Origin: Candidatus Aminicenantes bacterium
Lineage (GTDB): Bacteria > Acidobacteriota > Aminicenantia > Aminicenantales > Saccharicenantaceae
Direction: 5' to 3'
Assembly (NCBI GenBank): GCA_963809345.1
Contig: CAWEJF010000013.1
Coordinates: 57,155-121,154, forward strand
Length of the DNA: 64,000 bases
Part shown: positions 44,164-64,000 of the stretch, piece after piece
How positions within the stretch are numbered: position 1 is the first letter of the stretch
How the letters are laid out: each line of letters begins with the position of its first letter
The notes under the pieces: generated by a model
The model's database searches: none
What the model was told of the DNA's origin: nothing
What the model saw: the letters and a program-made list of their open reading frames with translations, nothing else
Made by a program: the position numbers and the translations under genes

Positions 44164-44186
44164 TTCAAGATGCGGACGAGGGGCTT

Positions 44187-44954
44187 ATGAGATGCGCGAT
44201 CCGAATGAACCGTGGATCCCTCTTGATCGCGGCGGGGATCCTCTTTGCCTTTACCGCCCTCGCCGCAGCCCAGGACCAGTGGCCGATCCATGACCTGAGC
44301 CGGCCCTTGCCTCCGGTCGTGACGCCCGGACCGGCCGGGCCGCCCGTTGCCCCGCCGTCCGACGCCGTTGTTCTTTTCGATGGTCACGGCCTCGGGCAAT
44401 GGACGGACGCCAAGGGCCAGCCGGCGAAATGGAAGGTCGAGAACGGTTACATGGAAGTCGTCCCGAAGACGGGCGGCATCCGCACGGTCAAGGACTTCGG
44501 CGACTGTCAGCTCCACGTCGAGTGGATGGCCCCGTCCCCGGCCCGGGGCACGGGCCAGGACCGCGGCAACAGCGGCGTCTTTCTCATGGAGCTTTACGAA
44601 GTCCAGGTCCTCGACGGCTATGAGAACAGAACTTATGCCGACGGAACGGCCGCGGCCATCTACGGCCAGTACCCGCCGCTCGTCAACGCCTGCCGGCCGC
44701 CAGGCGAGTGGCAGACCTATGACATCGTCTTTCACAGGCCGCGCTTCGACAAGGACGGCCGGGTCCTCGCTCCGGCCCGGATGACGGTATTCCACAACGG
44801 GCTTCTCGTCCACGAGTGCGCCGCCCTGACGGGGCCGACGGCCAACAAGGCCCGGCCGCCCTACAAGATGCACGCGGACAAGCTCCCCATCTCACTGCAA
44901 GACCACGACCACCCGGTCCGCTTCCGGACGATCTGGCTGCGCGAGCTCGAGTGA
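44187..44954 (+). CDS. DUF1080 (3-keto-disaccharide hydrolase / LamG-like) domain protein, secreted
   Basis: Signal peptide, then ...[19 protein letters not shown]...[17 protein letters not shown]...[12 protein letters not shown] pattern typical of DUF1080. Confidence 0.7.
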
Positions 44955-44965
44955 AGGGATCGACC

Positions 44966-45760
44966 ATGAAGAGGACCGTTCCGCTTGCCTTGGCCGTAGC
45001 TGTCATCGCCGGATCCATCGTCTGTTCGGACGCCGCTGTCCAGGCCCCCAACAAGGAAAGGTCCGCCCTCATCGTCTGGGGCGGCTGGGAGGGCCACGAG
45101 CCCAAGCCTTGCGTCGACATCTTCGCTCCCTGGCTCGAGAGCCAGGGCTTCAAGGTCGAGATCTCCCATACCCTCGACGCTTATCTCGATCTCGGGAAGC
45201 TCAAGACGCTCGACCTCATCGTCCACATCTTCACGATGTCCGATATCACACCCGACCAGGAGAAGAACCTCGAAGAGGCGGTGAGGAGCGGGGTGGGCCT
45301 GGCCGGCTGGCACGGCGGCCTCGGCGATGCCCATCGCTCGGCGGTCGAGTACCAGTTCATGGTCGGCGGCCAGTGGGTCGCCCACCCGGGCGGCGTCATC
45401 GACTACGATGTCGACATCACCAACCCCGACGACCCCATCACCAAGGGCCTCAAGCGGCGCTTCCACATGAAGTCGGAACAGTACTTCATGCACGTCGATC
45501 CCGGCAACGACGTCCTGGCGACCACGACCTTCACGGGCGAGCACGCCGCTTGGATCGCGGGCGAGGTCATGCCCGTCGTCTGGAAGAAGATGTACGGCAA
45601 GGGACGCGTATTCTACACCTCGCTCGGCCACGTCGCGGCCGACTTCAGCGTCCCCGAGGCCCGAGAGATCGTCAACCGGGGGCTCCTCTGGGCGGCGCGG
45701 GTCATGGGTGACGATCCGGGGAAGATGGACATCTACGCGCCGTTGCTGAAGAAGAAATAA
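44966..45760 (+). CDS. ThuA-domain protein (trehalose-utilisation-like, GATase1 fold), secreted
   Basis: Signal peptide. ...[12 protein letters not shown]...GWHGGLGDA...FYTSLGH motifs of ThuA family. Confidence 0.7.
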
Positions 45761-45971: not shown

Positions 45972-47546
45972 TCAGGGCCCGCGGCGGACGAAGAGGGACA
46001 GCACGACCTCAGGGCGGAGGCCGTAAAATGTCTGTGCGTACCCCGCCCCGAGCCCAGCGGCGATTTCGTCGGCGAAAGCCGCGGCGGAGATGACCACGGC
46101 CGCCTGGCCGGGCGGGACGTCCCGCCTCGCGGCCTCCACACTTGTCCAATAGCCGACCCGTCCGAACTTCCGGAGATACCAAGGCAGGGGCCATGTTTCC
46201 TCGGGGGGGGCGACGACCTCGATGAGCAGGTCGCGTTTCTCGGGTGCCGCTGCCGCCGTCTTCTCCACCGCGGCGATGAGCTTGAGGAAGTCCGGGCTCG
46301 TCTGGCCGTAGGCGTAAGGGTTCGCCGGGTCCGCCGGGTCTTTGAAATTCGCCCGATGATCCTGACGTGCCAGGTCGGCGAAACCCGGCACGAGGATGAC
46401 CAGGATGAGGACCTTGACCAGCTTGAAGCGGCTGATCCTCAGGAGGAGCGCGACGCCATTTCCGGCCAAGATGACGAGGCCGAGATAGAAGGGGAGCATG
46501 TTCCAAGGGGTCTTGTACGGAATGAGACTGAAGACGGCCGCCGTGATGATAGTGAAAAAGAGGATGAAGCGGAGGAAGCGGGGGCTGCCATCCCGGCCCG
46601 CGTCGCGCCCCAAGGCGGCGATGCCGCCGGCCACGGCGAGGAAAAGGAGGAAGGCCTCGCTCCAGACCGGGCCGCCGGCCGTCTTCGAATAGGCCAGCGT
46701 TTGGAAATAGTAGTTCCACGGGTGGGCGTGGACGCCGGCATGGCCGGCGCGGTCGAACGACGCGACGATGGCCCGGATCGAATCGGCCAGTCCCTGGGGG
46801 TTGTGGAAGAACGAGGTGTAGAGGAGGACGGCGGTCGCGGCGCCGGCGGCGAGGAAGAGCATGGCGTGAACGGCGGAGGGGAGCTTCGTCCGGGCGTCCC
46901 TCCAAACCCAGCCGCCCGCGGCCGTGACGACCCCGTGGCGATGCGTCCCGATTCTTTCGACGAGCGAGAGGAGCGCGAATGCCGCGGCCAGACCGGCGAA
47001 GAGAATGAGGCTCGTTTCTTTCGTGGCGTACATCAGCCCTGCCGCGGCCCCGGCCGCGAGGGCCCAGAGGGCGGAGCGTTTCTTCGCATACCTCCACCCG
47101 GCGCCGATGAGCGCCGCGAGAAAGAAGACGAGCAGCGTCTCCTGGATGTAAAAGCGGCTGTAGTAGGTCAGGGCCGGCGAGACGGCGGCCAGGGCCGCTG
47201 CCGCGAGCGTCGCCTCCCGCGAGAGCCCTCCCGCGAAGAGAAGGAAGAGGAGCAGCAAGGCGGCGCCGGCGAGGGCCGGGACGAGTCGGAGGACCCGCTC
47301 ATCGAGCCCGGCCAGGGTCGTCTCGCGAGCTGCCCAGGCCGCGGGCAAGGTCAGGTAATAGAGGCTCGGCCCGTGGTGGTCCTTGGGGTCGAAGCGATAG
47401 TCGCCCCGCTCAAGAAGGTCCCCGAACTTGACGGCCTGGTTGGCCTCGTCGGCGTGCATAGGCCGGAGGTCCAGGCGGACGGTGCGGAAGGCGATGGCGC
47501 CGAGGAGGGCGCAGAGGAAGAGACCCCGGAAGGCCTTTTTCGTCAT
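45972..47546 (-). CDS. Polytopic membrane glycosyltransferase, GT39/ArnT/PMT-like (TIGR03663-like)
   Basis: About 12 TM helices with an N-terminal D/E-containing loop (RPMHADEANQ). Start ATGA-overlaps the upstream gene stop. Confidence 0.6.
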   Translation of the reverse strand: MTKKAFRGLFLCALLGAIAFRTVRLDLRPMHADEANQAVKFGDLLERGDYRFDPKDHHGPSLYYLTLPAAWAARETTLAGLDERVLRLVPALAGAALLLLFLLFAGGLSREATLAAAALAAVSPALTYYSRFYIQETLLVFFLAALIGAGWRYAKKRSALWALAAGAAAGLMYATKETSLILFAGLAAAFALLSLVERIGTHRHGVVTAAGGWVWRDARTKLPSAVHAMLFLAAGAATAVLLYTSFFHNPQGLADSIRAIVASFDRAGHAGVHAHPWNYYFQTLAYSKTAGGPVWSEAFLLFLAVAGGIAALGRDAGRDGSPRFLRFILFFTIITAAVFSLIPYKTPWNMLPFYLGLVILAGNGVALLLRISRFKLVKVLILVILVPGFADLARQDHRANFKDPADPANPYAYGQTSPDFLKLIAAVEKTAAAAPEKRDLLIEVVAPPEETWPLPWYLRKFGRVGYWTSVEAARRDVPPGQAAVVISAAAFADEIAAGLGAGYAQTFYGLRPEVVLSLFVRRGP

Positions 47547-48220
47547 TTGGCCGGGAGACCGTAGACCTCGACCTCCACATAATGGTTCATGTCGTTCGAC
47601 GTGTTGCCGCCGCTGGTGAGACGGACGTAACGGGCCTTGGCGCCCTTGGGATCGAAGAGCTTGCCGTCGAAGGTTTCGATGTACTCCTTGTCCTTGCCCG
47701 CGCCGAGACCGGAGGTGTTGTCGTGGTCGTTGTTGAACACGGTCGTCACGCCGCTGATGAAATCCTTGTCGTCGGAGACCTGGACGATGACGTCTCGATA
47801 GACGCGGGCTTGACTGTGGTAGTGCCAGGCGACGATGGCCGAGAGCTCCTGGGACTTGCCGAGGTCGATCTGGACCCACTGGAGCATGGGCCCGAGCTCG
47901 ACGTAGTAGCCGTCCTCGCCGGACTTCTTGCCGTCCGTGACGAAGGCGACCTCGCCGATGACGGGCTCCTTGTCACTCGACGTGACGGGCTTGCCCGCGG
48001 AAAGAAGAACGGTGCCGGCGGGGACCATGAAGGGCCCGCGGGGCCTGCCGGTGACCATCTCGAGGTTGGGGGTGCGGATGTTCTTGGGCGTGCCGACGAA
48101 CATCGGCTTGGGAAGCTGGATCTTCAGGACCTCTTTCCCGGTGTCCTGGGCGAGGCCGGCCGGGGCCAGGACGGCCAGGCCGAGGCCGAGGATCGCTATG
48201 CCGCTGAGCCACTTCTTCAT
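47543..48220 (-). CDS. Secreted F5/8 type C (discoidin)-like domain protein
   Basis: Signal peptide MKKWLSGIAILGLGLAVLAPAGLA. WVQIDLGKSQELSAIVAWHYH...NHYVEVEVYG pattern of discoidin domains. Confidence 0.55.
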   Translation of the reverse strand: MKKWLSGIAILGLGLAVLAPAGLAQDTGKEVLKIQLPKPMFVGTPKNIRTPNLEMVTGRPRGPFMVPAGTVLLSAGKPVTSSDKEPVIGEVAFVTDGKKSGEDGYYVELGPMLQWVQIDLGKSQELSAIVAWHYHSQARVYRDVIVQVSDDKDFISGVTTVFNNDHDNTSGLGAGKDKEYIETFDGKLFDPKGAKARYVRLTSGGNTSNDMNHYVEVEVYGLPAK

Positions 48221-49167
48221 CGTCTTGGTCTCCTTGTTCTTGAGGGCCACTTGTCCGCCAGCGTGCCCGCGTTGAATATTCTACACGTTTTGGCCCCGGT
48301 TTTCACGAGGGCCCAGACGGCGGGGTGCCGGCCGCAGAAGTCGGCCACCTCCCCGGTCGACATGACCATGAAGGCGGTCGAGAGGGCGTCCGCTGCCGCT
48401 GCGGAGGGGTGCGAGGACCAGGCCGCCGCGTGCCCGGCGGCCGGAAGGCCGGTCCTCGGGTCGAGGACGTGGGCGCCCTTGACCTCTGTCCCCGAGCCGC
48501 TCAGGGAGCGGTTCAGGAGAACGATGCGGCCCGGCCCGGAGGTCGTTCCCGCGGTCGATCCCGCGCCGACCGGCCAGCCGCGTCCCTTCCCGCCGGCCGG
48601 GCCGGCTCCCGCGGCCAGGGCCGTGCTCGTCCCGGCGTGGAGGAGGACGTTCCGGACGTCCCAATCCCAGAGAACGGTCAGGGCCGCGTCCAAGGCGTAG
48701 CCCTTGCCGACGGCCCCGAGGTCGAGGTCGAGAGCGGGGAGGGACGCCCGGCCCTTGGGACGGAGCCGCGTCACCTCGAAGCCCCGGCCGTCGGTGTCGA
48801 CCCGGACGAGCGAAGTCAGAGGCCGTGGCCGGAGGCTCCTTCCGCGAGCCGCCGGCCGCCCGGCCGAAAGATAGTTGATATCGAACGCGCCTCCCGTCTC
48901 GGATTGGACGAAGGCCGAGAGCCCGAGGACTTCGGCCGTCTCGACGCCGACGCGAAGCGATCCGCCGGGCCCGAGCCGCCCGATCCGGCTCGTCTCGCTC
49001 GACGGGTCGAAGCGGCTGAAGAGCCGCTCGAGCCGGTCGATCTCGTCGAAGGCCGCCCGGGCCGCCTGCCCGGCGTAGGCCTCTTCTTTCTCCGCGACGA
49101 AGATCTCGAACGTCGTCGCCATCGCTTCATGGGCGAAGGTGGTGACGCGGAGCTTCTCAGACGGCAC
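48217..49167 (-). CDS. apbE: FAD:protein FMN transferase (ApbE family)
   Basis: ...AMATTFEI...LGAVGKGYALD... ApbE motifs. 4-nt overlap with the downstream gene. Confidence 0.8.
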   Translation of the reverse strand: MPSEKLRVTTFAHEAMATTFEIFVAEKEEAYAGQAARAAFDEIDRLERLFSRFDPSSETSRIGRLGPGGSLRVGVETAEVLGLSAFVQSETGGAFDINYLSAGRPAARGRSLRPRPLTSLVRVDTDGRGFEVTRLRPKGRASLPALDLDLGAVGKGYALDAALTVLWDWDVRNVLLHAGTSTALAAGAGPAGGKGRGWPVGAGSTAGTTSGPGRIVLLNRSLSGSGTEVKGAHVLDPRTGLPAAGHAAAWSSHPSAAAADALSTAFMVMSTGEVADFCGRHPAVWALVKTGAKTCRIFNAGTLADKWPSRTRRPRR

Positions 49168-49178
49168 CTGGAGGGATC

Positions 49179-52100
49179 CTATTCAGATGTTTTTGGACCG
49201 AGAGGCAGTTCGCGGACGGCATCCGAGCCGACCTTGATGCGCGCGGCGACATCCTTCTCGCCCCGGATCTTCTCATCGGTCAGGTAGTGGACCTCGAGCA
49301 GCCCGTCGGCGTGGAAGCCCGTCCGGAAGTAGTTCATCTCGGCGAGCGATTGACTCCAACCCAGGAGCCAGGTCTCGAGCTCCTTGCGTTGCCGGCCGCC
49401 GCCCAGGAAATGGACGATGATTCGGATGGGGCTGGCCGGCTCGACTTCGCCGCCGTCGCTCGTATCGACGAGGTAGACGCCCCGGACGCCCCACTTCGGG
49501 TCGCCGCAGTGGAAGGCGATCCGTTCGGCCATGCGCAGACGCCAGCGGGCGTGATCGCCGTCGTCGACGGCGCCCGCCCCTTCGGCGGCGCAAGCGGCCC
49601 GCACCGCGGCGTCGGGGGCGGTGAAAAAGCCGACGGCGAGCTCCCGGTCGGCGTTCATGAGCACACGAAGGACCTTGCCGCCGGTCGCCGCGGGGATGTC
49701 GATGACCCTCAGGGTGTCGCCGAGCGCGGCGCATTCGGGACAGTGCTCGGCCAGCGTGTTGGGGGCCTCGAGCAGGAACTTCTCGTTGAACTTGACCCCC
49801 TCGTCGTCGGGATAGAGAGGCAGGTAGCGGATGCCCGACTCGACGAGGTCCTGGAAGAAATGGGTCCCGAAGGACACATCGGGGACGTAGTTGCCCTTCT
49901 TGCGGGCGACCTCGATGAGCATGGCCGAATTGTTGATCTCCGAATAGGTGACGCGGACGCCGAGCTTGATGTCGCCGCGGCTGCCCCACCGTCCCGGACC
50001 CATGAGGATGAACTGGCGGCGCGGCAGGAGCTTGTTGAGCTTGCCGACGGCCTGCCCCACGGCGACGAGGTCGGCGAATTCGTTCAACTCGCCGTAGCGG
50101 TCAGGGTCGACGTAGACGAGATGGGTGACATCGGCGACCCGGCCGTTCGAGATGTGCTTGCGCGCGGTGAAGAGGACGGACTCGTCCTTGAGATTGGCCG
50201 GGATCTCCATGGCCACGTCCTCGGCGCCTTGGCTCTGTGGCCGGCACTGGAGGAGATAGAAGTCGGTCGCGGTCGCGGCGAACTCGATATCGACGGGGAC
50301 GCCCATCGCCGTCGACAGGGTCTTGAGGATGGCCTCGAGCTGGAGCATGAAGGGGGTCCCGGAGATGAGGCCCTCGAAGGTGACGACGGCATCCGACGTG
50401 GCGATGTCCGTGGCCAGGCCCATGGGCCTCTGGAGCAGGCCGTCCCGGTAGATCGAGAAGACCTTGGTCAGGGCGGGGAACTCGTGGCCGACCTCCTTGA
50501 GGACGTCCAGGATGTCTTTGGTCACGAAGGTGTTCTCCTCGAGGTCGATGACGTCGATCTTCTTGGGCGAATAGCGGACGACCTCGTCGGTCGAGACGTT
50601 GACCCTCAGGTTCGGCTGGCTCGGGGAGACGAGGATGGGATAATCGTCGCTGACCCGGTCGACCGCCCGCGTCCCCAGGCCGGGCACGAGCCGGAGCAGG
50701 CCGTCCTCGCGGCGGATGCGCGGCGACCAGCGGAACTCGTTCCGGCTGAAGGCGACGCCGGCGTAGGCCGGGAAAAAGTATTTCCCGGCGCGCGTGCCGA
50801 CGACCTCCTGGATCATGACCGCCATCTCCTCGTAGAAGTCGAGGAGCCCGCGCTCCGCCCGGTACTGGATCGGGTCGGGGCTGAAGATCGAGGCGTAGAC
50901 TTCGGCCACCGCGTCGAGCAGGGCCTCGAGGCGCTTCTGCTTGTCGCCCTGATTGGCCAGGAAGAGGCTCTTGTACTTCCCGGCAAAGGCCGTGCCCAGC
51001 CGGTCCTCGAGGAGGCTCGAGCTGCGGACGACGAGAGGGACCTCGCCGAAGTCGTCCAGGGCCACCGACAGGCCCTTGACGATCTCGGGGGGGAAGGTCG
51101 AGTTCTTGAAAACCTGGACGAGGTGGGGGTATTCCTGGCGGACAATGTCGATGTCCTTGTATTTCTGCTCGTGGATGTCGTCGAGGTTGTTGTAGGTCGT
51201 GAAGGAGATCAGGGCGTCCGAGGTCACGTACCAGGTCTTGGGCCTCTTGACCGCGCCGATGATCTTTGTCCGGCGGGCCGCCTGGGTGAGGATCCGGTGA
51301 CCCAGAAACAGGCCGGCGCTCTTGCCGCCGAGCTTGCCGTGGCTGCCCGGCGGGAAGATGATGCGCTCCATGAGGTCGAAGAAGTCCTCGATGTCGACGT
51401 ACTTCTTGGCGACGTTGATGAACTCGAGCTGCTCGGTGAAGAAGCGGCGGATGAGGGCGACGCGGACGCTGTTGGCCAGGGACCGCGGCAGCTGGATGCC
51501 CTCGGGCGCCAGGATCTTGATCCGGCGCATGCTGTCGAGGACCTCGGCCAGGTCGGCATAGACGTTCTCCAGGTTCTTGACCGACGCGCTGGAGCGGTCC
51601 TCGTTGATCCACTTGTGGATGCGGTCGAGGACCTCCTCGTCGGTCAGGTTGGCCGAGGCGACGCGGAAGGTCTCCTCGGTCAGATCGAAGAAACGGTCCA
51701 TGGATTCCCGGGTCTGGGGAAGGTTGGACTCGCCGAACAGGCCCTCGTTCATCCCGTCGCCGCTGAAGCGCTGAAGGAGGTCGCGGGCCTCGGTGACGCC
51801 GCGCCAGCCGAGGTAGTTCATCATCTTGCGGGAGACCCGGATGAGGAGGCTCGGGTTGGTGTTGCGGAGGAGGTCCAGCGCGATCCGCCAGCCCTGCTTT
51901 CCCGCCGGCCGCCTCGCGGCGCTGGTCGCTGATCTGCTCGTACATGCTCCGCAGGCGCTGATGGAGGATGAAATGGCCGAGGCGCTCGGCGATCGATTGG
52001 ATGAGCTTGATCTCGCCCTTCATGAACGGACCGCAATCGCTCTCCGGCGTCGGCTTCCTGTACGATACGCAGAGACGGCCGACTGAGGCGTCCTGAACTC

Positions 52101-54012: not shown

Positions 54013-55767
54013 ATGAGCGGACAAAGAAAGCTCGGAGAAGACGTTCGAGGGGCGGTCGCCCGGCGCCGCTTCCTGGGCTATTTCGGAGCCGTGGGCCTCG
54101 GTGGGACCCTCCTCCCCGGGGCGCTCCTGGCCGTGGTCCAGGACGCCCCGGAGATCAAGCCCGAGATGGTCGCCGCGGCCGCCAAGATCGCCGGCCTGCC
54201 GCTCACAGCCGAAGCCGAGAAGGCCATCGCCGACGGCCTGAACCGGCGCGACGGGCTGCTCCGGGATTTCCAGGCCCTGCGGGACATGAATTTGGGGAAC
54301 GACACGCCCTCGGCCCTCGTCTTCAACCCGGTCCTCCCGGGGACCCAAATCCCGCCCGGGAAGTCGCTCCTGAAGACGACGAAGGTGCGGGTGGCCAAAC
54401 CACGGACGGACGAGGACCTGGCCTTCTTGCCGGTGACGCACCTGGCCGCTCTCCTCAAGAAGCGCGAGATCAAGTCCGTCGAGCTGACCAAGCTCTGCCT
54501 CGAGCGGCTCAAGAAATATGATCCTATCCTGCACTGCGTCGTCACGCTGACGGAAGACCTGGCCCTCGAGCAGGCGGGCCGGGCAGATAAAGAGATCGCC
54601 GCCGGGCGGTACCGCGGACTCCTCCACGGCATGCCCTGGGGCGCCAAGGACCTCCTGGCCGTCAAGGGCTACAAAACGACCTTCGGCGCCTCGCCCTTTA
54701 AGGACCAGACGATCGACCGGAACGCGGCCGTCTTCGAAAAGCTGACCGGGGCCGGGGCCGTCCTCGTCGCCAAACTGACCTTGGGGGCGCTGGCCATGGG
54801 CGACCGCTGGTTCGGCGGCCAGACGAAGAGCCCCTGGGACCCGAAGAACGCCACACAAGGCTCGAGCGGTTCATCGGCCGGGCCGGCCGCGGCCGTCGCG
54901 GCGGGACTTGTTCCGTTCGCCATCGGCTCCGAAACGCGCGGCTCGATCATCTCGCCCGCGAGCCGCTGCGGTGTCACCGGGCTGCGGCCGTCGTTCGGCC
55001 GGGTCAGCCGTTACGGAGCGATGGCCCTGAGCTTCTCCATGGACAAGATCGGCCCGCTCTGCCGGACGGCCGAGGATTGCGCCGTCGTCCTCCACGCCAT
55101 CAACGGCCCGGACGGGCGCGACAATACGGTCTTCGATGTCCCGTTCGCGTGGGATGCCGGCCGCGACGTCCGCAGTCTCAAGGCCGGCTATCTCAAGGAG
55201 GACATCGAGCGGGAGATCCCCGACGATCCGAAGAACCCGGACAGGGTCCGGAGGATGAAAGAGGCGCAAGCCTTCAACAAGGCCTCGCTCGAGACCATCC
55301 GCAGGCTCGGCGTCGAACCGGTCCCGGTCGAGCTCCCGAAGCTGGGTTCGGGACCGATGGACTTCCTGCTGACGACGGAGGGCGCGGCGGTCTTCGACGA
55401 CCTGGTGCGGAGCGACAAGCTGGACCTGATGTCGGCGGAGCCGGAGAGGAGCGGCTGGGTCGGCTCCTTCCGACTCCACGAGTTCGTCCCCGCTGTGCAG
55501 TACATCCAGGCCAACCGGGCCCGCTACCGGCTGATGGAGGCCTATCATGAGCTTTTCAAGAACATGGACGTCCTCGTCGGCAGCGCCCTCGGGCCGACGA
55601 ACCTGACCGGCCATCCTGAGATCGCTTTTCCTCACGGCTTCGATTCCAAGGGACAGCCTGCGGTCCTGCGTCTGACGGGGAGACTCTTCGGCGAAGCCGA
55701 TATCCTGCTCCTGGCCCACGCTTTCCAGCAGAGAACAGACTTCCATCTCAAGCGCCCTCAACTTTAG
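54013..55767 (+). CDS. Amidase-signature family amidase with a Tat signal peptide
   Basis: RRRFLGYFGAVGLGG Tat motif. AS signature GGSSGSSAG...GSETRGSIISPA with the catalytic Ser-cisSer-Lys context. Confidence 0.85.
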   Translation: MSGQRKLGEDVRGAVARRRFLGYFGAVGLGGTLLPGALLAVVQDAPEIKPEMVAAAAKIAGLPLTAEAEKAIADGLNRRDGLLRDFQALRDMNLGNDTPSALVFNPVLPGTQIPPGKSLLKTTKVRVAKPRTDEDLAFLPVTHLAALLKKREIKSVELTKLCLERLKKYDPILHCVVTLTEDLALEQAGRADKEIAAGRYRGLLHGMPWGAKDLLAVKGYKTTFGASPFKDQTIDRNAAVFEKLTGAGAVLVAKLTLGALAMGDRWFGGQTKSPWDPKNATQGSSGSSAGPAAAVAAGLVPFAIGSETRGSIISPASRCGVTGLRPSFGRVSRYGAMALSFSMDKIGPLCRTAEDCAVVLHAINGPDGRDNTVFDVPFAWDAGRDVRSLKAGYLKEDIEREIPDDPKNPDRVRRMKEAQAFNKASLETIRRLGVEPVPVELPKLGSGPMDFLLTTEGAAVFDDLVRSDKLDLMSAEPERSGWVGSFRLHEFVPAVQYIQANRARYRLMEAYHELFKNMDVLVGSALGPTNLTGHPEIAFPHGFDSKGQPAVLRLTGRLFGEADILLLAHAFQQRTDFHLKRPQL

Positions 55768-55849: not shown

Positions 55850-56479
55850 ATGAGACACATTGCGAAAAGGTCCGATATCAGGGACCTAATCCTTGACGCC
55901 GTGGACACCCTCCTGGCCCGGTACGGGTATGGCAAGATGACCATGGAGGATGTGGCCAGGCAGGTCGGCATCGGGAAGGGCACGATCTATCTTCATTTCC
56001 CGTCCAAGGAGGAGCTGGTCCTGGCCCACGTCGACCGCATCGCGGAGACCGTCATCCGGAAGCTCGAGGAACAGGCCGGCTCGTCCGACTCCATCGATAG
56101 GCGGCTCCGCCGTATGCTCGTCCTGCGGGTCCTGCATCGGTTCGACAGCGTCGCCCATTATTCCCAGAGCCTCGGCGACCTCTTGTCGGCGGTCCGGGCG
56201 CCCCTTCTCGTCCGGCGGCAGGCCCATTTCGAAAAGGAGGCGCGGGTCTTCGAGGGCGTCCTCCGGGAAGGGGCCAGGATCGGGTCGCTCGATTGCCCCG
56301 ACCCGCGGACGACTGCGTCCGTCCTCATCCAAAGCACAAATTCCCTGCTTCCGTTCAACCTGTCGGTCGGCGAGCTCGGCCGACGAGACGAGCTGGAGGA
56401 CCAGGTCGGCCGCATCGCCGATCTGCTCATCAAAGGGCTTCTCTCAAGCCCGTCGCGTCCGGCCATCTGGACGCGATGA
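55850..56479 (+). CDS. TetR/AcrR-family transcriptional regulator
   Basis: N-terminal HTH (TMEDVARQVGIGKGTIYLHFPSKEEL). Confidence 0.85.
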   Translation: MRHIAKRSDIRDLILDAVDTLLARYGYGKMTMEDVARQVGIGKGTIYLHFPSKEELVLAHVDRIAETVIRKLEEQAGSSDSIDRRLRRMLVLRVLHRFDSVAHYSQSLGDLLSAVRAPLLVRRQAHFEKEARVFEGVLREGARIGSLDCPDPRTTASVLIQSTNSLLPFNLSVGELGRRDELEDQVGRIADLLIKGLLSSPSRPAIWTR

Positions 56480-56517: not shown

Positions 56518-57855
56518 ATGTCCAAGACGCTCCGTTTGATATTCATCATCACCGTGGCCCTCGTCCTGTGGGTTTCAGCGCTTTTCGCCCAGGAATCCCA
56601 GGCGGCGGCTGTCGACCAGGCCAAAAAGCAGGCCATCGTCGACGAGATCGTGACGCTTCTGAACAAGAACTACGTCTTCCCCGAGACGGCCAAGAAGATG
56701 GAGGACGCGCTCCGGGCCAAGCTGGCCGGGGGCGAGCTCGACAGCGTGAATGAGGCCCCCGCTTTCGCCCAAGCCGTCTCCGCCCTTCTGCTCGAAGTGA
56801 GCAAGGACAGGCACATCGGCTTCTCGTTCAATCGCGAGATGGCCGACAACCTGAGGCGCTTCGCGAGCCGCAGCGAGGACGAGGTGAAGCGGGCCCGCGA
56901 GCAGCAGCTCCTCGAATCCCAGCGCGACAATTTCGGCTTCCGTAAGGTCGAGCGGCTCCCCGGCAACATCGGATACCTCGACTTCCGCGTTTTCAAATCG
57001 GCCTCCGACGCCGGCCCGACGGCCATCGCGGCCCTGAACTTTCTGGCCTATTGCGACGCGGTCATCGTCGACCTGCGCCAGAACGGTGGCGGGGACCCCG
57101 CCGGGATCCAGCTCATCTGCTCCTATTTCTTCGACGAGCCCGCCCACCTCAACGACATCTACATCCGGTCCACGGACAAGACGGAGAATTACTGGACCTT
57201 GCCCTATGTCCCCGGGCCGAAACCGTCCCGCGCCGACCTCTACATCCTGACGAGCGCCCGGACCTTCTCGGGGGCGGAGGAGTTCTCCTACAACATGCAG
57301 AATCTCAAACGAGGGACCATCGTCGGAGAGACGACGGGCGGCGGGGCCCATCCGACGACGGCGGAGATCGTCCAGAACGACTATATCCTCCGAGTGCCCT
57401 TCGCCCGGGCCATCAATCCCGTCTCCAAGACGAATTGGGAAGGGACGGGCGTCACGCCCGATATCGCCGTTCCCGCTGCGGAGGCCTTCGACCGCGCCTA
57501 CGCGATGGCCGTCGATAAGCTCGCGGCCAAAGCCACCGACCCGCAGACCAAGGCCCAGTTCGAGTGGATCCTCGCGGGGCTGAAGGCCAAGCAGGGTCCG
57601 GCGCTCGTCGATCGGAAGACCCTGAAGACCTACGCCGGCATCTACGGCGAGCGCACGGTCACCTTCGAGAACGGGACCCTCTATTATCAGCGCACCGGCC
57701 CCAAGTACCGGCTCATCCCCATGACCGCGACGCTTTTCGCCCTCGACGGGCTCGACTCGTTTCGGATCGAGTTCGTGGTCAAGGACGGGAAGGCGGTCGA
57801 GATCGTCGGTCTCTACGACGACGGCGGGCGCCAGCCCTCACCCCGGACGAAATAG
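56518..57855 (+). CDS. Secreted S41-family peptidase (C-terminal processing protease-like)
   Basis: Signal peptide. GYLDFRVF...RQNGGG...ILTSARTFSGAEEF (Ser) ... catalytic region typical of S41 peptidases. Confidence 0.75.
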   Translation: MSKTLRLIFIITVALVLWVSALFAQESQAAAVDQAKKQAIVDEIVTLLNKNYVFPETAKKMEDALRAKLAGGELDSVNEAPAFAQAVSALLLEVSKDRHIGFSFNREMADNLRRFASRSEDEVKRAREQQLLESQRDNFGFRKVERLPGNIGYLDFRVFKSASDAGPTAIAALNFLAYCDAVIVDLRQNGGGDPAGIQLICSYFFDEPAHLNDIYIRSTDKTENYWTLPYVPGPKPSRADLYILTSARTFSGAEEFSYNMQNLKRGTIVGETTGGGAHPTTAEIVQNDYILRVPFARAINPVSKTNWEGTGVTPDIAVPAAEAFDRAYAMAVDKLAAKATDPQTKAQFEWILAGLKAKQGPALVDRKTLKTYAGIYGERTVTFENGTLYYQRTGPKYRLIPMTATLFALDGLDSFRIEFVVKDGKAVEIVGLYDDGGRQPSPRTK

Positions 57856-57866: not shown

Positions 57867-58562
57867 TCAGGACGACGGCGGCCGAGGAGCGTCGAAGAGC
57901 TCGAGGCCGACGAAAACCGTCGCCGCCAGCGCCGAGACGAGCGCGCTGTAGCGGTGGAACTCAAACATGAACCTCTGCCCCGCGGTGCGCAGCAGCGGCA
58001 GCATCGGGAGCAGGGCGGACACCGTCAGCATGAACCCGGCCGCGCCGAAGAGCCAAAAGGCCCAGAGCTTGACCCGCGCCGGGGTGATGCCCATCTTCCG
58101 TGGGTCGAGGAGGGACAAGCTCAGGCTCGCCGGCTTCGGGACGGTGATGAAATCCCGGCCCTTGAAGATGACGATGATCGTGAGGCAGACCGCGAAGACG
58201 CCTCCGGCCGTGACGTGGCCGATGAGGGGATAGCCGAACATGCCGCGGGGGATGAAGATGCCGAAGAAAAAGCCGCTCGCGGCAAGGTAGAGGAAGCTCC
58301 CGTAGAAGCCGATGTAAAGCCACTTTTCTAGGACCGGCTCCCGCCACAACGGCAGCCGTTTGATGTAGGCCCACCATGCTTTCGGCGACGCTTTGCGGGA
58401 CATCTGGACCGTCCGCAGGGCGAGCCAGGCCAGGAACTTCTTGAAGACCTCGGCGTAGAGGATGGTCGATCTGGCCTCTTCGCGGGTCGTCCAGAAGCGG
58501 TGGAAGGCGATCCCGAGGAACGTCCCCGCGACGGCGAGGAGGGTGACGATCGTGAACAGCAT
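57867..58562 (-). CDS. Polytopic membrane protein, possibly a cytochrome-b-like membrane anchor
   Basis: About 5 TM helices with conserved His in or near membrane segments (H21, H126, H203). Immediately downstream of the multihaem cytochrome gene (4-nt gap). Confidence 0.5.
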   Translation of the reverse strand: MLFTIVTLLAVAGTFLGIAFHRFWTTREEARSTILYAEVFKKFLAWLALRTVQMSRKASPKAWWAYIKRLPLWREPVLEKWLYIGFYGSFLYLAASGFFFGIFIPRGMFGYPLIGHVTAGGVFAVCLTIIVIFKGRDFITVPKPASLSLSLLDPRKMGITPARVKLWAFWLFGAAGFMLTVSALLPMLPLLRTAGQRFMFEFHRYSALVSALAATVFVGLELFDAPRPPSS

Positions 58563-58566
58563 GGCC

Positions 58567-60927
58567 TTACCTTTTCTCCATGAACCCGGCGACCCGGCCG
58601 AGCGCGACGAGCCCGGCCAGGAAGAGGAGGGCGCCGGCGACCAACGCGCAGACGGCCAGGACGACCTTGAGGGCCGGCCGGACGATGAACGACAGGCCGA
58701 AGATGCGCTGGAAGATCCCGCCGAGACCCATGAAGGCGGCCGCCGAGCGCTTCTCCACGCGTGCTGTCAGCAGAGGGCCCATGCCCTTGAGCCTGGTGAA
58801 GAAGAAATCGGAGCCGCCGCTATGGCAGTCCGTGCAGCCGTTCCAGCCGAGCGATTGCTGGGCCGGCCGGACGTTGTGGGCCAGGGGCCAGGTCACGGGC
58901 CCGGCGGCCTTGTCCTTGCCGACGACGAGCTTGCCGCTCTTGTCGATCCGGAAGAGCCGGCCGCCGGAGAGGTAGACGGGATCGCCGCGCGGGATCGCTT
59001 TTGTCAGCGCCTCGAGGACGAGGGCGACCTGTTCCTCCGTGAGGGTCTGTTCCGTCCCCGCCTTTGCGGTCACGGTCCGGACATCGAAGTCCGTGGCCAG
59101 GGGAACGACTTTCCCATCGCGAAGCCAGCCGGGACGGGCAGCCCCGGCCGCCTCGGCCGGAGCTTCGGTGATATCGAGATAGCCTCCGGCGATCCGGTAC
59201 ATCGTTTTCCTGACGACGATCACCGGCTCACCGGGCTTGGCCCCGACCGTGCCGAGCGCCTGAAGGAATTCCTGGAACCGCGTCTCCACAGCCGGGTCCT
59301 TATCGCCCGCGGCCGGGTCGAAATCCGGCACCAGGGACAGCACCTCGGCGCCCTTGGCGATCCCCCAAAAGGCCGGCACGTCCGCCTTCGCCCCGGTCCG
59401 CTTGGCCGCGTCGAGGCCGGCGTCGACGTTCGGGGTGAACACGATCTCGCCGGACACGAGGACCGGCGTTTCATCCTCGGCCATGACCTGGCTCAGGGCG
59501 ATGAGGACCTGGGCGATGTGCTCTTCGGGCTTGAGGAGATCGCCCGCCGCGGCCTCGACCTCGGCCGGCTTCAGCGGGACAAGGTTCTTGTCGACCCGGC
59601 GGGCCCAGAAGGCCGGCCAGACGAGCCGCTGCGGCGAGATCTTATGTCCGTCATCCTTCTTATAGACGGGCTCGATGATCGCGGGGGTGTCCGTGGACCA
59701 GGTCGCGACGCCGTAGATCCCGAGCCGGTTGGCCCGCGACGTCCGGACGCGCGTAAACCCTTCCTGCGGTTTCGGGCCCGAGTGGCAGACCGTGCAGGAC
59801 AGCCTCTTGAAGTGGACGAGCGGAATGCCCGTGTGCTTGGGGTAGGGCGCACCGAGGCGGCCCGGCACGACCGACTTCTCTCCCTCGGCGTTCTCGCCGA
59901 GATGGCAGCCCCGGCAAGTGAAGGACTCCGCCGTCCGGTTGCCCGTCTCGGCGGCCTCACCCTCGTAGCCGCGGAGGATGGCGTGACCGAGATCGTTCCT
60001 GTGGCAATCCGTGCACTTCAGGCCGGCCGTAGCGTGAACGTCGGCGTCGGCGCTCCACATGGCCGCGTCCTTCGGCGAGACCGAATGACAGGTCAGGCAG
60101 CGCTCGTTGGAAGGCTGGTAGTTCAGGTCGAAAAAGTAGCGGTGCTTGGAGTCGAAATCGACCGTCCGGTACCTGACGGACGGCACGACGGCCCATTCGT
60201 GATCGTCGAGGTTGGGGCCGTCGTAGATGTCCCACGTTTCCTTGAGACGGGAGGCCATGCCGCCGACCTCGCCGACGCCGCCGGCCGCGGTGGCCGCCCA
60301 GCGCAGGTTCTCGCGGAGGACCTGCTTGGCCCATTCGCTGTGGTCCTGCCGTCCCGAGCGGTTGTGGCAGGCGAGACAGTTGACCTCGGCCTTGCCGGAG
60401 ACGCTCCAGCGGGCCTCGGGATGGTCCGCGACCTCCTCGTCCGAGGGTTCGGCCGGGCCGCCGCCGGGCAGGCTCCTGCCGAAGAGGACGGTGAAGTCCC
60501 AGGCCGTCAGCCCCACGGCTTCGGGAGCGAAGGTCCCCGGCCACTTCCTGTAGGACAGGGGCAGGACCGTCCCCGTTTTCGGATCGACCTGGAGCCAGGG
60601 CTCGCCCGGCCGGCCGCTCTCGGCGGCCGTCATGGCGCCGAAGTGCCAGCCGTTCCGGATCTTCGTGTAATCGTGGCAAGGCCCGCAGGTGAAGCGGGCC
60701 GAATAGGGCAGGGGGTCGGTTTCCGTCGGGATGATGGGCTCGTCGTTCTCGTCGCGCAGGGGAATGAGGTGGGCCGGGAGCGTCCGGTTGCCGTCCCAGG
60801 TGACGAGCTTTTGGGCCCGGGCGGCTTCCGGCGCGGCTGTCTGGCCCAATGCGCCCGCGGCGAGGATGAGGACGGCGGCCAGCGCGCCGCCGAAGGCCTC
60901 GAGAGAGGTCCGTCCGGCGCGGCTCAT
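58567..60927 (-). CDS. Multihaem c-type cytochrome (7 CxxCH motifs) with N-terminal signal peptide and C-terminal TM anchor
   Basis: CxxCH motifs: CGPCH, CLACH, CLTCH, CTDCH, CRGCH, CTVCH, CTDCH. Signal peptide and a C-terminal hydrophobic helix. Start ATGA-coupled to the upstream oxidoreductase. Confidence 0.85.
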   Translation of the reverse strand: MSRAGRTSLEAFGGALAAVLILAAGALGQTAAPEAARAQKLVTWDGNRTLPAHLIPLRDENDEPIIPTETDPLPYSARFTCGPCHDYTKIRNGWHFGAMTAAESGRPGEPWLQVDPKTGTVLPLSYRKWPGTFAPEAVGLTAWDFTVLFGRSLPGGGPAEPSDEEVADHPEARWSVSGKAEVNCLACHNRSGRQDHSEWAKQVLRENLRWAATAAGGVGEVGGMASRLKETWDIYDGPNLDDHEWAVVPSVRYRTVDFDSKHRYFFDLNYQPSNERCLTCHSVSPKDAAMWSADADVHATAGLKCTDCHRNDLGHAILRGYEGEAAETGNRTAESFTCRGCHLGENAEGEKSVVPGRLGAPYPKHTGIPLVHFKRLSCTVCHSGPKPQEGFTRVRTSRANRLGIYGVATWSTDTPAIIEPVYKKDDGHKISPQRLVWPAFWARRVDKNLVPLKPAEVEAAAGDLLKPEEHIAQVLIALSQVMAEDETPVLVSGEIVFTPNVDAGLDAAKRTGAKADVPAFWGIAKGAEVLSLVPDFDPAAGDKDPAVETRFQEFLQALGTVGAKPGEPVIVVRKTMYRIAGGYLDITEAPAEAAGAARPGWLRDGKVVPLATDFDVRTVTAKAGTEQTLTEEQVALVLEALTKAIPRGDPVYLSGGRLFRIDKSGKLVVGKDKAAGPVTWPLAHNVRPAQQSLGWNGCTDCHSGGSDFFFTRLKGMGPLLTARVEKRSAAAFMGLGGIFQRIFGLSFIVRPALKVVLAVCALVAGALLFLAGLVALGRVAGFMEKR

Positions 60928-62303
60928 GCTTTATACTGCTCCGGCCGGAACTCCATGATGCGGCGGGCCTTGACCGCTTCGTTGGTCTTGAGGACGGCGA
61001 CGCAGGATTCGTACGCCAGCTCGGCGGGGCAATTGAGCGTCGTGCCGTTCCGCACGGCGTCGAAGAAGTTCTCGAGGTGCGGCTGGTGGGCCGGCTTGGC
61101 CAGCTCGACCGGCAGCGGCCAGCGCCCCGCTTCGGCCGTCACCCGGACGTCGACGTAGATGTTCTTGGTCGTCGATTTCTGGATGGGCACGGCCTCGGAC
61201 TGGAGAAGACCGGCCTTGGCCAAAGAATCCCACTCGGGGGCGTGGGGCTCGCGCATGGCCCAGTTGCCGCGCTGGGGGATCTCGGACAGGACGAGCGAGC
61301 CGTTCTCGCCCATGAAGGTCTCGTAGAAGCCGCCGTGCTGGGTCGTCGTCTGGACCTGGTAGAAGGCGCGGGTCGGTCCCTCCTTCGTCTCGAACTCGTA
61401 GATGGCCATGACATTGTCGTACCATTCCCAGTTCTTGTAATAATCGAGGCCGCCGCTGGCCACGACGGACTTGGGCGGCGCGCCGTGGACCCAGCTGAAG
61501 AGGTCGATCTGGTGGGAGCCCAGGTCGACCATCGGGCCCCCGCCGTACTTCTTGTACAGGCGCCAGTTGCGGAACTCGGTCATGGAGCCGTAGCCATACT
61601 TGTCGAGCGTGGCCTGGTCGATGGCGTACTTCTCCGGCCAGCCCAGGAGGTCGGCCTTGGCCCTGTTCCACTGGGCATAGGCGACGGTCACCCGCCCGAG
61701 GAGCCTCTGGTCGCGGATAAGCCGGTCGATGGCGTGGATGTAGCGCGGATTGGAGCGGCGCTGGTGGCCGATCTGGAGGAGCTTGCCGGTCGCGCGGGCC
61801 GTGAGGACCATGGACCGGGCCTTGTCGAGCGAGTTCGACATCTCCTTTTCGCAGTAGACCGGCAGCCCGGCCCGGAGAAAGGCGTTGGTCTGCTCGGCGT
61901 GGACCCAGTCGGGGGTCGCGACGATGGCCGCATGGAGGCCTTTTTCGGAGGCCAGGAGGTCGCGGTATTCCTCATAGACGTTGGCGAGGTGGCCGTATTT
62001 CTTGAGGTAGTTCCCGGTGTACTGGCGGCTGTACGACCAGATGTCGCAGATGGCGACGATGCGGACCGAAGGAATGCGCAACATCGACTCGATGAGCACC
62101 CGGCCCTGGGCGCCGCAGCCGATGACGGCCACGCGGAGCTCGTCGGCGCTCTTGCCGCCGGCCGGCGCGGGCGCGGCCTGCGGCAGGCCCTGAGCGAAGG
62201 CCGACCCGGCCAGGGCGGCGCCGAGCCCGGCCGTGGCCGAAGATCTGAGGAAATCCCGGCGGCTGATCCGCTTCGCCGCAGGCGTCTGGACTGCACTGCC
62301 CAT
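60924..62303 (-). CDS. Gfo/Idh/MocA-family oxidoreductase with a Tat signal (periplasmic dehydrogenase)
   Basis: SRRDFLRSSATAGLGAALAGSAFA Tat signal. Rossmann IGCGAQG. Gfo/Idh/MocA C-terminal domain. Confidence 0.85.
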   Translation of the reverse strand: MGSAVQTPAAKRISRRDFLRSSATAGLGAALAGSAFAQGLPQAAPAPAGGKSADELRVAVIGCGAQGRVLIESMLRIPSVRIVAICDIWSYSRQYTGNYLKKYGHLANVYEEYRDLLASEKGLHAAIVATPDWVHAEQTNAFLRAGLPVYCEKEMSNSLDKARSMVLTARATGKLLQIGHQRRSNPRYIHAIDRLIRDQRLLGRVTVAYAQWNRAKADLLGWPEKYAIDQATLDKYGYGSMTEFRNWRLYKKYGGGPMVDLGSHQIDLFSWVHGAPPKSVVASGGLDYYKNWEWYDNVMAIYEFETKEGPTRAFYQVQTTTQHGGFYETFMGENGSLVLSEIPQRGNWAMREPHAPEWDSLAKAGLLQSEAVPIQKSTTKNIYVDVRVTAEAGRWPLPVELAKPAHQPHLENFFDAVRNGTTLNCPAELAYESCVAVLKTNEAVKARRIMEFRPEQYKA

Positions 62304-62472
62304 GGTGTCACTCCTGCCTCGGTTGAGACCGGCCCATCATACTATAAAATGGCCCTCCCGAAGAAAAAAACGGAATTGACTTCGCCCTCTGGCGGATTTA
62401 TCATTCCCCCGCGCTGGCGTGCCCGGCCCCGAACAATGGGACCGCTCGAGCGCGCCCAGGGAGGGGGAGCCC

Positions 62473-64000
62473 ATGCGGTGTCCTCATTGCCAATTCGAGA
62501 ATCAGGCTGATACCCGCTTTTGCGGCAACTGTGCCGCACTCCTCCGCCCCGGCCCGGGCGCCGCGACACCCTCCTCCCCGTCGATGACGACGCCCCTGCC
62601 GTCGCCGGGTTCCCCGACCATGACGGCCCATATCATTTGCGGGGAGATCGTCCCGGGGGCCGAGTTCGCCGGGCGGTACCGGATCCTCGATGAGCTCGGC
62701 CGCGGCGGCATGGGCCGGGTCTACAAGGCCCTGGACCGAGAGATCAGCGAGTCCATCGCCCTCAAGGTCCTCGGGCCCGCGTTCAGCGCCGACGAGAAGA
62801 TGATCGAGCGCTTCCGCAATGAGCTCAAGCTGGCCCGGAGGATCTCCCATAAGAACGTCTGTCGCATCTTCGACCTGGGGAACTGCGAGGGGATCTATTA
62901 CATCACCATGGAGTTCGTCCCGGGCGACAATCTCAAGAGCATCATCCAGATGATGGGTCCGCTTGCCCCGTCCCGGGCCCTGGCGGTCGCCGGACAGGTC
63001 TGCGACGGCCTTGCGGAAGCCCACCGGCTGGGAGTTGTCCATAGGGACCTCAAGTCGTCCAACATCATGATCGATCGCGAGGGAAGCGCCCGGATCATGG
63101 ATTTCGGCATCGCCCGCGCCGCCGAGACCAAGGGCCTCACCGACCGTGGCGCCCTCGTCGGGACGCCCGAGTATATGGCTCCCGAGCAGGTCGAAGGGAC
63201 GGACGTCGATCAGCGGGCCGACATCTACTCCCTCGGCGTCATCCTGTTCGAGATGTCGACGGGGAGGGTGCCCTTCGAGGGCAAGACGCCGCTGAGCGTC
63301 GCCATGCAGCACAAGAGCGCCAAGCCTCCGGACCCCCGCGACCTGAACAGTCAGACGCCGGGTGGTCTGAGCGGGATCATCTCGAAATGCCTGGAGAAGG
63401 ACCCCACGGCCCGCTATCAGAGGATCGAGGACCTTGCCGCCGAGCTCCACGGGGTCGCCGAGGGGCTCACGGATCTCGGAACGGCCAGGCCCCAACCGAC
63501 GACGGCGGGGCTGACGCCCGGAGGCACCCGGATCCTGAACACTATCGCCGTCCTGCCCTTCGCAGACCTCAGCCCCCAGAAAGACCAGGAATATTTCTGC
63601 GAGGGCCTGGCCGAGGAGATTATCACCGCCTTGGCCAAGGTCAGCCACCTCGAGGTGGCGGCCAAGAGCTCGGCCTTTTCGGTCGAGTTCAAGACCATGG
63701 ACATCCGTGAGGTCGGGCGCCGCCTGGGCGTGGCCGCGGTGCTCGAGGGCAGTGTCCGCAAGGTCGAGAACAAGCTCCGCATCACGGCCCAGCTCCTCAA
63801 CGTCTCCACCGGCTACCATCTCTGGTCGGAGAAATTCGATCGGACTTTCGAGGACGTCTTCGCCATCCAGGACGAGATCACATTGGCCATCGTCGACCGG
63901 CTCAGGGTCAAGCTCCTGGGGGACGAGAAGGCCGCCCTCCTCAAGCGGACCACGGACAACCCGGAAGCCTACAATCTCTATCTGAAGGGTCGCTATTTCT
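62473..64000 (+). CDS. Serine/threonine protein kinase with N-terminal zinc-ribbon and C-terminal TolB-N-like domain, 3'-partial
   Basis: RBS gaggggga. CPHCQFEN...CGNC zinc ribbon. Hanks kinase motifs (VHRDLKSSNIM, DFGIA, GTPEYMAPE). IAVLPFADLSPQKDQEYFCEGLAEEI TolB-N-like region. Runs off the window, so it is absent from the ORF track. Confidence 0.85.
   Translation, partial: MRCPHCQFENQADTRFCGNCAALLRPGPGAATPSSPSMTTPLPSPGSPTMTAHIICGEIVPGAEFAGRYRILDELGRGGMGRVYKALDREISESIALKVLGPAFSADEKMIERFRNELKLARRISHKNVCRIFDLGNCEGIYYITMEFVPGDNLKSIIQMMGPLAPSRALAVAGQVCDGLAEAHRLGVVHRDLKSSNIMIDREGSARIMDFGIARAAETKGLTDRGALVGTPEYMAPEQVEGTDVDQRADIYSLGVILFEMSTGRVPFEGKTPLSVAMQHKSAKPPDPRDLNSQTPGGLSGIISKCLEKDPTARYQRIEDLAAELHGVAEGLTDLGTARPQPTTAGLTPGGTRILNTIAVLPFADLSPQKDQEYFCEGLAEEIITALAKVSHLEVAAKSSAFSVEFKTMDIREVGRRLGVAAVLEGSVRKVENKLRITAQLLNVSTGYHLWSEKFDRTFEDVFAIQDEITLAIVDRLRVKLLGDEKAALLKRTTDNPEAYNLYLKGRYF

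Follow-up and report, generated by a model that had tools for sequence, protein, structure and literature searches.

A conserved gene triple for an exported Gfo/Idh/MocA dehydrogenase, a heptahaem cytochrome c and a putative cytochrome b relative in Candidatus Aminicenantes: a candidate system for periplasmic sugar oxidation

By which route are the electrons passed on when a sugar is oxidised outside the cytoplasm? Planctomycetota, Bacteroidota and Acidobacteriota abound in Gfo/Idh/MocA-family enzymes exported through the twin-arginine translocation (Tat) pathway, which start 3-keto-glycoside glycan breakdown. The study of Bacteroides BT2158 states that the oxidant which re-oxidises such Tat-exported Gfo-type glycoside dehydrogenases is unidentified (PMC8121099). 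This question was raised by a locus of a Candidatus Aminicenantes bacterium (assembly GCA_963809345.1, contig CAWEJF010000013.1), analysed here as a window, that is, the whole stretch of 64,000 nucleotides. Three adjacent genes on its minus strand, labelled A, B and C in order from upstream, encode a Tat-exported Gfo/Idh/MocA-family dehydrogenase of the nicotinamide adenine dinucleotide (phosphate), NAD(P), type, a heptahaem cytochrome c and a five-helix membrane protein which is probably a diverged relative of prokaryotic cytochrome b. The three products most likely form a membrane-anchored oxidoreductase facing the periplasm. All the evidence for the A-B-C system is genomic.

The arrangement of the three genes was analysed. 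The sequence-only reading of this DNA had described three co-directional minus-strand genes, and open reading frames of 459 (A, 60924-62303), 786 (B, 58567-60927) and 231 amino acids (C, 57867-58562) were found as it had placed them. The ATGA overlap between A and B (60924-60927) and the gap of 4 nucleotides between B and C (58563-58566) were likewise present. The GC content at third codon positions was 0.89-0.92 in A, B and C, as in real genes of this 65% GC genome, which supports all three as genuine genes. No internal minus-strand promoter was found within A-B-C by a sigma-70 and terminator scan, a scan that is uninformative for this phylum. The named homologues come from Candidatus Aminicenantes metagenome-assembled genomes (MAGs).

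The conservation of the triple was surveyed in one genome per species (GTDB set), where a scan with the B alignment gave 79 loci and A and C were placed by tblastn. A was directly upstream of B in 62 of the 66 loci having more than 1.5 kb of upstream flank, and in each of the 71 loci with enough downstream sequence the gene next after B was C-like. A is missing from only three loci, all of them Planctomycetota, and in one more (L071) it is present in two frameshifted pieces. The reverse test was made by scanning metagenomes with the A alignment, which gave 80 loci at 47-94% identity; a B-like gene started within 800 nucleotides after A in 59 of the 69 loci with at least 600 nucleotides downstream. 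The triple is kept across Aminicenantia, with B being 45-85% identical, and also in Saccharicenans-type genomes, at 45% identity for B, ~68-70% for A and ~30-35% for C. Beyond Aminicenantia, one MAG of the Bryobacteraceae (L077) and one of the Planctomycetales (L073) carry B and C together with an A that is 52% identical, in frames which overlap or abut, so that the tight coupling by overlaps or near-zero gaps is retained in distant phyla. These three counts clearly indicate that the triple is conserved as a unit among relatives, the outcome on which the sequence-only reading had let its interpretation depend. At one locus (L141, 3521-8310) a second Tat-type Gfo/Idh/MocA gene of 493 amino acids sits between the A orthologue and B.

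The features of A were in accordance with the proposed exported Gfo/Idh/MocA enzyme. Its N-terminal Rossmann domain matched PF01408 (59.3 bits, E 8e-16, cutoff 24) and its C-terminal domain matched PF22725 (49.4 bits) and PF02894 (44 bits). The Tat signal peptide (residues 1-37; 62193-62303, minus strand) contains the motif SRRDFL and matched TIGR01409 with 19.4 bits against a cutoff of 16.7, while PF10518, another Tat model, gave 20.1 bits, slightly below its cutoff of 22.7. A cleavage-like site between AFA and QG was read off the sequence, not predicted by a tool. The RRxFL motif is kept in the orthologues of A. The alignment of 59 orthologues revealed conservation of the GxGxxG motif, present as IGCGAQG, and of the acidic residue after the second beta strand (ICD), along with an invariant EKP-type lysine in YCEKEM and an invariant D-x3-H in DLGSHQID; 169 of the 459 positions were at least 97% identical. 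From these motifs and the Tat signal, A probably holds a bound NAD(P) cofactor. It is not an equivalog of BT_2158_fam (NF058561), for which only residues 14-267 matched, with 75.1 bits against a cutoff of 750. As judged from its alignment, A is a highly conserved subfamily of its own, tied to B.

The second protein, B, had been described as a seven-CxxCH protein with a signal peptide and a C-terminal anchor, and all these features were present. The CxxCH motifs lie at residues 81, 184, 277, 305, 338, 378 and 698 and take 14 of the 15 cysteines; by composition 0.007 such motifs are expected, and more than one occurred in none of 20,000 shuffled sequences. The hydrophobic part of the N-terminal signal spans residues 9-27 and the C-terminal transmembrane helix spans residues 755-773 (58609-58665, minus strand; hydropathy 2.79). 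PF14522 was matched with 35.2 bits (E 1.1e-08, cutoff 24.8), and PF14537 was matched also. None of the seven CxxCH motifs varied among 95 sequences drawn from Aminicenantia and Planctomycetota (33-86% identity), and exactly seven further histidines were likewise invariant, at positions 53, 95, 298, 315, 365, 372 and 684. This agreement fits B as seven bis-histidine haems acting as an electron wire and not as an open-haem enzyme; a catalytic, enzyme-type haem is the less likely alternative, as there are just as many additional invariant histidines as haems.

The AlphaFold2 (AF2) model of B was good, with a predicted local distance difference test score (pLDDT) of 83.8 and a predicted template modelling score (pTM) of 0.82. 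The model revealed a haem-rich part (~50-410) carrying six haems, a beta-rich insert (~417-680), the seventh haem motif (698) and an amphipathic plus transmembrane helix (737-785), such that the seventh haem directly precedes the membrane helix. No significant match of the fold of B was found among PDB structures or PDB sequences. The insert was confidently modelled, also with no significant PDB match; sliding-clamp-like matches were weak (E >0.06). In the Bryobacteraceae and Planctomycetales homologues, which have 605-660 amino acids, the insert is reduced or missing; it could be a docking platform. The B family comprises 519 clusters at 50% identity (E <= 1e-30).

The third protein, C, contains about five hydrophobic helices and histidines at positions 21, 116 and 203, in agreement with the earlier description of a five-helix, histidine-bearing membrane protein. 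C itself has no direct Pfam or NCBIfam match. Its diverse homologues all matched PF01292 (15 of 15, best E 1e-09), the Planctomycetota homologue at L083 carries a precomputed weak match to the same family, and a few homologues also matched Ferric_reduct and DUF4405 weakly. By this transitive homology C would belong to the PF01292 prokaryotic cytochrome b family. The alignment of 15 sequences at 20-43% identity left only W81, H116, W170, L184, M187, P189 and H203 invariant; in 63 sequences H116 was conserved in 94% and H203 in 95%, while His21 was conserved in 44%. H116 (codon 58215-58217, minus strand) and H203 (codon 57954-57956, minus strand) are predicted axial haem ligands, placed by the positive-inside rule, as read from the sequence, at the periplasmic ends of the third and fifth transmembrane helices. 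A membrane protein lacking haem features would have weakened the proposed electron path, and this was not what the family matches and the two invariant membrane histidines revealed.

The number of haems in C was a separate question, as the sequence-only reading had asked whether a di-haem b fold was present. Pirellulales-type C proteins have two further transmembrane histidines, one in an extra N-terminal helix and one 14 residues past the H203 equivalent (H-x13-H); this four-histidine pattern is what we take to be the FdnI/HyaC di-haem b ligand pattern. In the clade of the window the four-histidine feature was absent, with H116 and H203 alone conserved and position 217 being an invariant Phe where the Pirellulales-type proteins carry His. 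We therefore predict that C of the window clade binds one b haem only, near the periplasm. The di-haem fold found no support here, only the periplasmic-side histidine pair being kept.

Fusion of the two cytochrome genes was also observed. B and C form one polypeptide of 820-1000 amino acids in at least six lineages (L076 at 7860-10376, P0361, P0367, P0405, P0441 and P0460), and both histidine motifs are kept in each. The P0460 fusion is of the Aminicenantes-like type, with the two-histidine version of C only. As classical fusion evidence, these proteins argue for a physical complex of B and C. In two Planctomycetota loci (L073, 5201-7183 and 7184-7669; L079) C is without its first transmembrane helix and the anchor of B bears a histidine (..ALVLLHYILGG..), and it looks as if the ligand-bearing helix had moved between the B and C genes there.

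The triple is part of a larger set of linked genes. The sequence-only reading was right about the triple itself and had overlooked three further genes of the larger unit, which lie in the window on the same strand as A-B-C and 8.7 kb away from it. These encode an ApbE-family protein transferring flavin mononucleotide (FMN) from flavin adenine dinucleotide (FAD) to proteins, with no signal peptide (48217-49167; PF02424, 115 bits, 4.3e-33), a secreted protein of the F5/8 type C (F5/8C), discoidin or galactose-binding-like kind (47543-48250; PF00754, PF22633) and an Agl23-like or PMT_2-type membrane glycosyltransferase (GT) of the GT-C class (45972-47546; TIGR03663, 193 bits, cutoff 126). The GT homologue at L120 matches PF13231 (PMT_2). 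The three genes directly follow C on the same strand in deep-branching Aminicenantia, in the Bryobacteraceae and Planctomycetales loci and on many metagenome contigs. Where a genome locus extended more than 6 kb downstream (55 loci), ApbE was found downstream of C in 25, F5/8C in 23 and GT in 21. The F5/8C protein is the best-conserved partner between phyla, with 52-60% identity there and 52-91% over the other loci.

In the window clade the place of ApbE is held by three plus-strand genes, which travel together after C. These are 54013-55767, encoding 584 amino acids with a Tat-like N-terminus (RRRFLGYFG) and labelled amidase by eye only; 55850-56479, an open reading frame of 209 amino acids labelled TetR-type regulator by eye only; and 56518-57855, an S41 peptidase (PF03572). 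The direct succession of ApbE, F5/8C and GT after C elsewhere, together with the insertion after C in the window clade, indicates that the ancestral conserved unit, as read from gene order, is the six genes A-B-C-ApbE-F5/8C-GT and is split in the window. A further gene (49179-51824, minus strand, 881 amino acids, PPDK_N, phosphoenolpyruvate-utilising and ATP-binding) lies 12 nucleotides upstream of ApbE on the same strand and is outside the cluster in other lineages.

The neighbouring genes were examined for the likely substrate. The second Tat-exported Gfo paralogue with DUF1080 and ThuA partners, which had been pointed out earlier, is present at 42688-45760 on the plus strand, convergent with GT-F5/8C-ApbE. 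It consists of a BT2158-like enzyme (42688-44163; 550 bits, below the BT_2158_fam cutoff of 750), a 3-keto-disaccharide hydrolase (DUF1080) and ThuA. Genes of 3-keto-glycoside metabolism also stand beside the cluster in six further loci (L044, L046, L051, L052, L058 and L064), L120 has ThuA and a Gfo enzyme nearby, and L139 has a xylose-isomerase-like TIM barrel after a DoxX-family gene. The recurrence of such neighbours supports a sugar or glycoside as the probable substrate of A. The lectin-like F5/8C protein and the Agl23-like GT-C protein of the ancestral cluster further suggest a glycan or glycoconjugate. An outer-membrane transport protein of the FadL/TodX type (41338-42585, plus strand; PF03349, 2.6e-34) is encoded just ahead of the BT2158-like gene, which is unusual company for sugar genes.

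On balance, a forward transfer of electrons from A to B, then to C and to quinone, is favoured. Folding of A in the cytoplasm would enclose a tightly bound NAD(P), and the folded enzyme would then be exported by Tat. In the periplasm it would oxidise a hydroxyl of a sugar or glycoside, probably to a keto-sugar, and the two electrons would pass from A via the seven bis-histidine c haems of the membrane-tethered B. The seventh haem of B, next to the membrane helix, would hand them to the single b haem between His116 and His203 of C, from where menaquinone would be reduced. We infer that A docks on B and that the electrons run in this direction, and likewise the substrate and the hydride-to-one-electron split. 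The electron path offered by the sequence-only reading stands in part: the conservation of the unit and the haem-like character of C were borne out, the transfer from A to B is argued from synteny, and the di-haem form of C was not sustained.

Several observations weigh against this path. C of the window gave 8.8 bits (E 1.8) with PF01292, far from the cutoff of 30.1. Its AF2 model, built with 22 close homologues, was too poor (pLDDT 63.7, pTM 0.36) for a haem geometry to be read from it; the PDB fold search with this model returned nothing significant, the top entry 4gd3_A (hydrogenase-1 cytochrome b, E 2.4) not being used as evidence. Fermentation is the metabolism commonly ascribed to Aminicenantes, and the 64-kb window revealed no terminal reductase. 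The chemistry poses a further difficulty, as NAD(P)H donates hydride and haems accept single electrons, and we know of no established route for direct one-electron transfer from NAD(P)H to haem. The known periplasmic sugar dehydrogenase-cytochrome complexes use flavin or pyrroloquinoline quinone (PQQ) for this step. In mature A, B, C, F5/8C and GT neither a flavin-binding domain nor another hydride-to-one-electron converter was found, and strict and loose motif scans of the same proteins revealed no canonical [S/T]GA[S/T] flavinylation site. The modules are, moreover, separable. B-C stands without A among unrelated genes in many Pirellulales-type Planctomycetota loci, and A with F5/8C is found without B-C in five loci (L090, L115, L120, L125 and L126).

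The ApbE protein of the cluster may supply covalent FMN for the hydride-to-one-electron step. The ApbE of the window contains the motifs GAIGKGYA, HVLDPRTG and DALSTAF. A hydrophobic N-terminal extension was found in none of the 56 cluster-linked ApbE homologues, and no signal peptide or lipobox was found in them (L051, 10961-11974, and L120, 10242-11141, included), which points to a cytoplasmic-type ApbE. As Tat substrates fold in the cytoplasm, such an ApbE could conceivably reach A. ApbE would then attach FMN at a non-canonical site to A or to a co-exported partner before Tat transport, and the FMN would bridge NAD(P)H and the heptahaem wire in a respiratory nicotinoprotein-cytochrome dehydrogenase; this proposal is speculative and given a slim chance. 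If it were true, glycoside dehydrogenases of the NAD type in the periplasm could feed the electrons of sugars straight to quinone. When all six families were scanned by conservation, no credible flavinylation site emerged. Two candidates were rejected: SSAT in A falls inside the cleaved Tat signal, and TAA[S/G] in B is weak, lies in a periplasmic protein, is modelled as helix and varies among relatives. The surrounding stretch of B (residues 210-217, RWAATAAGG) is the sole conserved small-small-[S/T] site in the cluster proteins, with T213 and with S/T at 216 in most relatives, and is loosely similar to the [S/T]GA[S/T] motif. Published flavinylation surveys dropped ApbE proteins without a signal peptide, and this cluster would thus have escaped them.

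The separate occurrence of the modules bears on a different reading, in which B-C works like CymA, NrfH or CbcL, as a quinol dehydrogenase or electron hub of general use in the periplasm, and A is merely co-transcribed, being a redox-neutral nicotinoprotein (GFOR/BT2158-like) or an NAD-dependent glycosidase; A would recycle its bound cofactor with a second sugar and make no contact with the haems. The modules A, B-C and F5/8C-GT-ApbE were found in every pairwise combination, including a B-C fusion with F5/8C at L076. By its distribution over these loci B-C is an autonomous module, and its Pirellulales-type occurrences beside unrelated genes are what a hub would show. At one of the Planctomycetota loci (L083, 864-11100) B-C directly follows a cluster that encodes a molybdopterin oxidoreductase, a Rieske protein and three cytochromes (a cytochrome b, a multihaem cytochrome and a small c7-like one); the adjoining of B-C to this cluster favours a hub. 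At the same locus C is followed, 1.6 kb further on, by a Gfo/Idh/MocA gene. The accepted model for Tat-exported Gfo enzymes is also redox-neutral (PMC8121099), and the lack of a hydride-to-electron converter in the cluster proteins agrees with it.

A hub, however, leaves the adjacency of A and B unexplained, which is often an overlap and is seen, over three phyla, in 62 of 66 loci when counted from B and in 59 of 69 when counted from A. It also leaves unexplained a replacement observed where B-C is absent. In three loci a DoxX-family membrane protein, above the Pfam cutoff, follows A instead of B-C (L120, 7386-7871; L115, 5532-6017; L139, 7342-7845), and at L120 it overlaps the stop codon of A by ATGA. 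That another small membrane protein is coupled to A at this place suggests a requirement of A for a partner in the membrane. A hub with an uninvolved A is accordingly considered unlikely, at a probability which is low and still deserves weight.

The six genes may instead serve the modification of an envelope glycoconjugate. The GT-C protein would transfer a sugar from a polyprenyl-phosphate donor, F5/8C would bind the glycan, A would oxidise or epimerise its sugar, and B-C would dispose only of occasional electrons, so that the system would be biosynthetic, neither catabolic nor respiratory. The TIGR03663 score above cutoff and the high conservation of F5/8C between phyla speak for such a role, as do the loci in which F5/8C, GT and ApbE go with A even without B-C: L090, L120 and L126 have both GT and ApbE, and L115 has GT. 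At L125 the contig stops shortly past F5/8C. In the window clade, however, the two halves are parted by 8.7 kb of unrelated genes while A-B-C is intact, and the neighbouring catabolic 3-keto-glycoside genes indicate sugar breakdown. The biosynthetic role is held to be quite improbable, and it is compatible with the transfer from A through B to C, not opposed to it.

Reverse flow, in which menaquinol would pass electrons through C and B to the cofactor of A and A would be a periplasmic reductase (of a keto-sugar, for example) serving as the terminal electron sink of an anaerobe, would profit from the reversibility of bis-histidine multihaem wires, from the anoxic habitats named as locus sources, where extra electron sinks are useful, and from the 3-keto-sugar-forming enzymes encoded nearby, which would supply the substrate, but is doubtful, since the step from menaquinol (~-75 mV) to NAD(P)+ (~-320 mV) is strongly uphill unless the potential of the bound cofactor is much shifted, no energy-coupling element was seen and C is without a cytoplasmic-side haem.

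A gene divergent from A (window ~62471-64000, plus strand) has a product starting with MRCPHCQFENQ and otherwise resembling a Ser/Thr protein kinase, and extends past the end of the window. Its relatives lie upstream of A in five loci (L004, L005, L022, L025 and L033).

Forward transfer through A, B and C to quinone would give a testable answer to the re-oxidation of trapped NAD(P)H where no periplasmic NAD pool exists: a cytochrome operon, or DoxX in its place, would couple sugar oxidation to quinone. If it holds, respiratory capacity would be added to the Aminicenantes, a new heptahaem/cytochrome b module would be defined and a class of signal-less ApbE proteins would be brought to notice. 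No published description of the cluster was found in the literature on Gfo, MocA, multihaem cytochromes and Aminicenantes, the family name being searched as single words, and the system looks like an undescribed route for electrons from extracytoplasmic sugar oxidation into the membrane.

The system was finally compared with known ones. It resembles LacABC and the FAD-dependent glucose and fructose dehydrogenases, in which an exported catalytic subunit oxidises a periplasmic sugar and a dedicated c-type cytochrome leads towards the respiratory chain; 3-keto-glycoside chemistry is the likely reaction. The catalytic subunit of the LacABC type is, in contrast, an FAD flavoprotein (GMC-type), so the flavin makes the two- to one-electron step there, whereas A is an NAD(P)-type Gfo/Idh/MocA protein without a flavin domain. 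The cytochrome of the LacABC type carries three haems, and those complexes are not known to include a cytochrome b as a subunit of its own. The LacABC glucoside 3-dehydrogenase is cited as cytochrome c-dependent (PMC8121099). For the sugar dehydrogenase-cytochrome c complexes with FAD or PQQ in general, the comparison is functional only, since here the catalytic fold and the cytochrome are different and a cytochrome b is added.

For the glucose-fructose oxidoreductase (GFOR) of Zymomonas and BT2158-type enzymes, the proposed mechanism regenerates the cofactor by means of a second sugar (PMC8121099). Both the Zymomonas enzyme and the Bacteroides BT2158-type share with A the fold, the motifs, the Tat signal and a length of ~460-490 amino acids, but have no cytochrome partner.

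Modules of a multihaem c and an FdnI/HyaC-type cytochrome b, for example Geobacter CbcL, are what we take to be the closest likeness of B-C. They have in common a periplasmic multihaem c domain and a PF01292-type cytochrome b in one polypeptide or in adjacent genes, and the Pirellulales-type C shares the four-histidine pattern with H-x13-H in the last helix. B differs in its seven haems, the large beta-rich insert and the lack of a significant PDB match, and C of Aminicenantia differs in being without the cytoplasmic-side histidine pair.

The ApbE-associated extracytosolic electron-transfer systems (MsrQ-like, PepSY-like, DUF4405 and FezC; PMC11334425) likewise place apbE beside a small b-type membrane cytochrome with transmembrane histidines. 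The present cluster is distinguished from them by an ApbE without signal peptide in all 56 homologues and by lacking both [S/T]GA[S/T] sites and substrates of the FMN-bind, DUF2271 and DUF3570 kinds; in their stead it contains a multihaem cytochrome c and an NAD(P) dehydrogenase.

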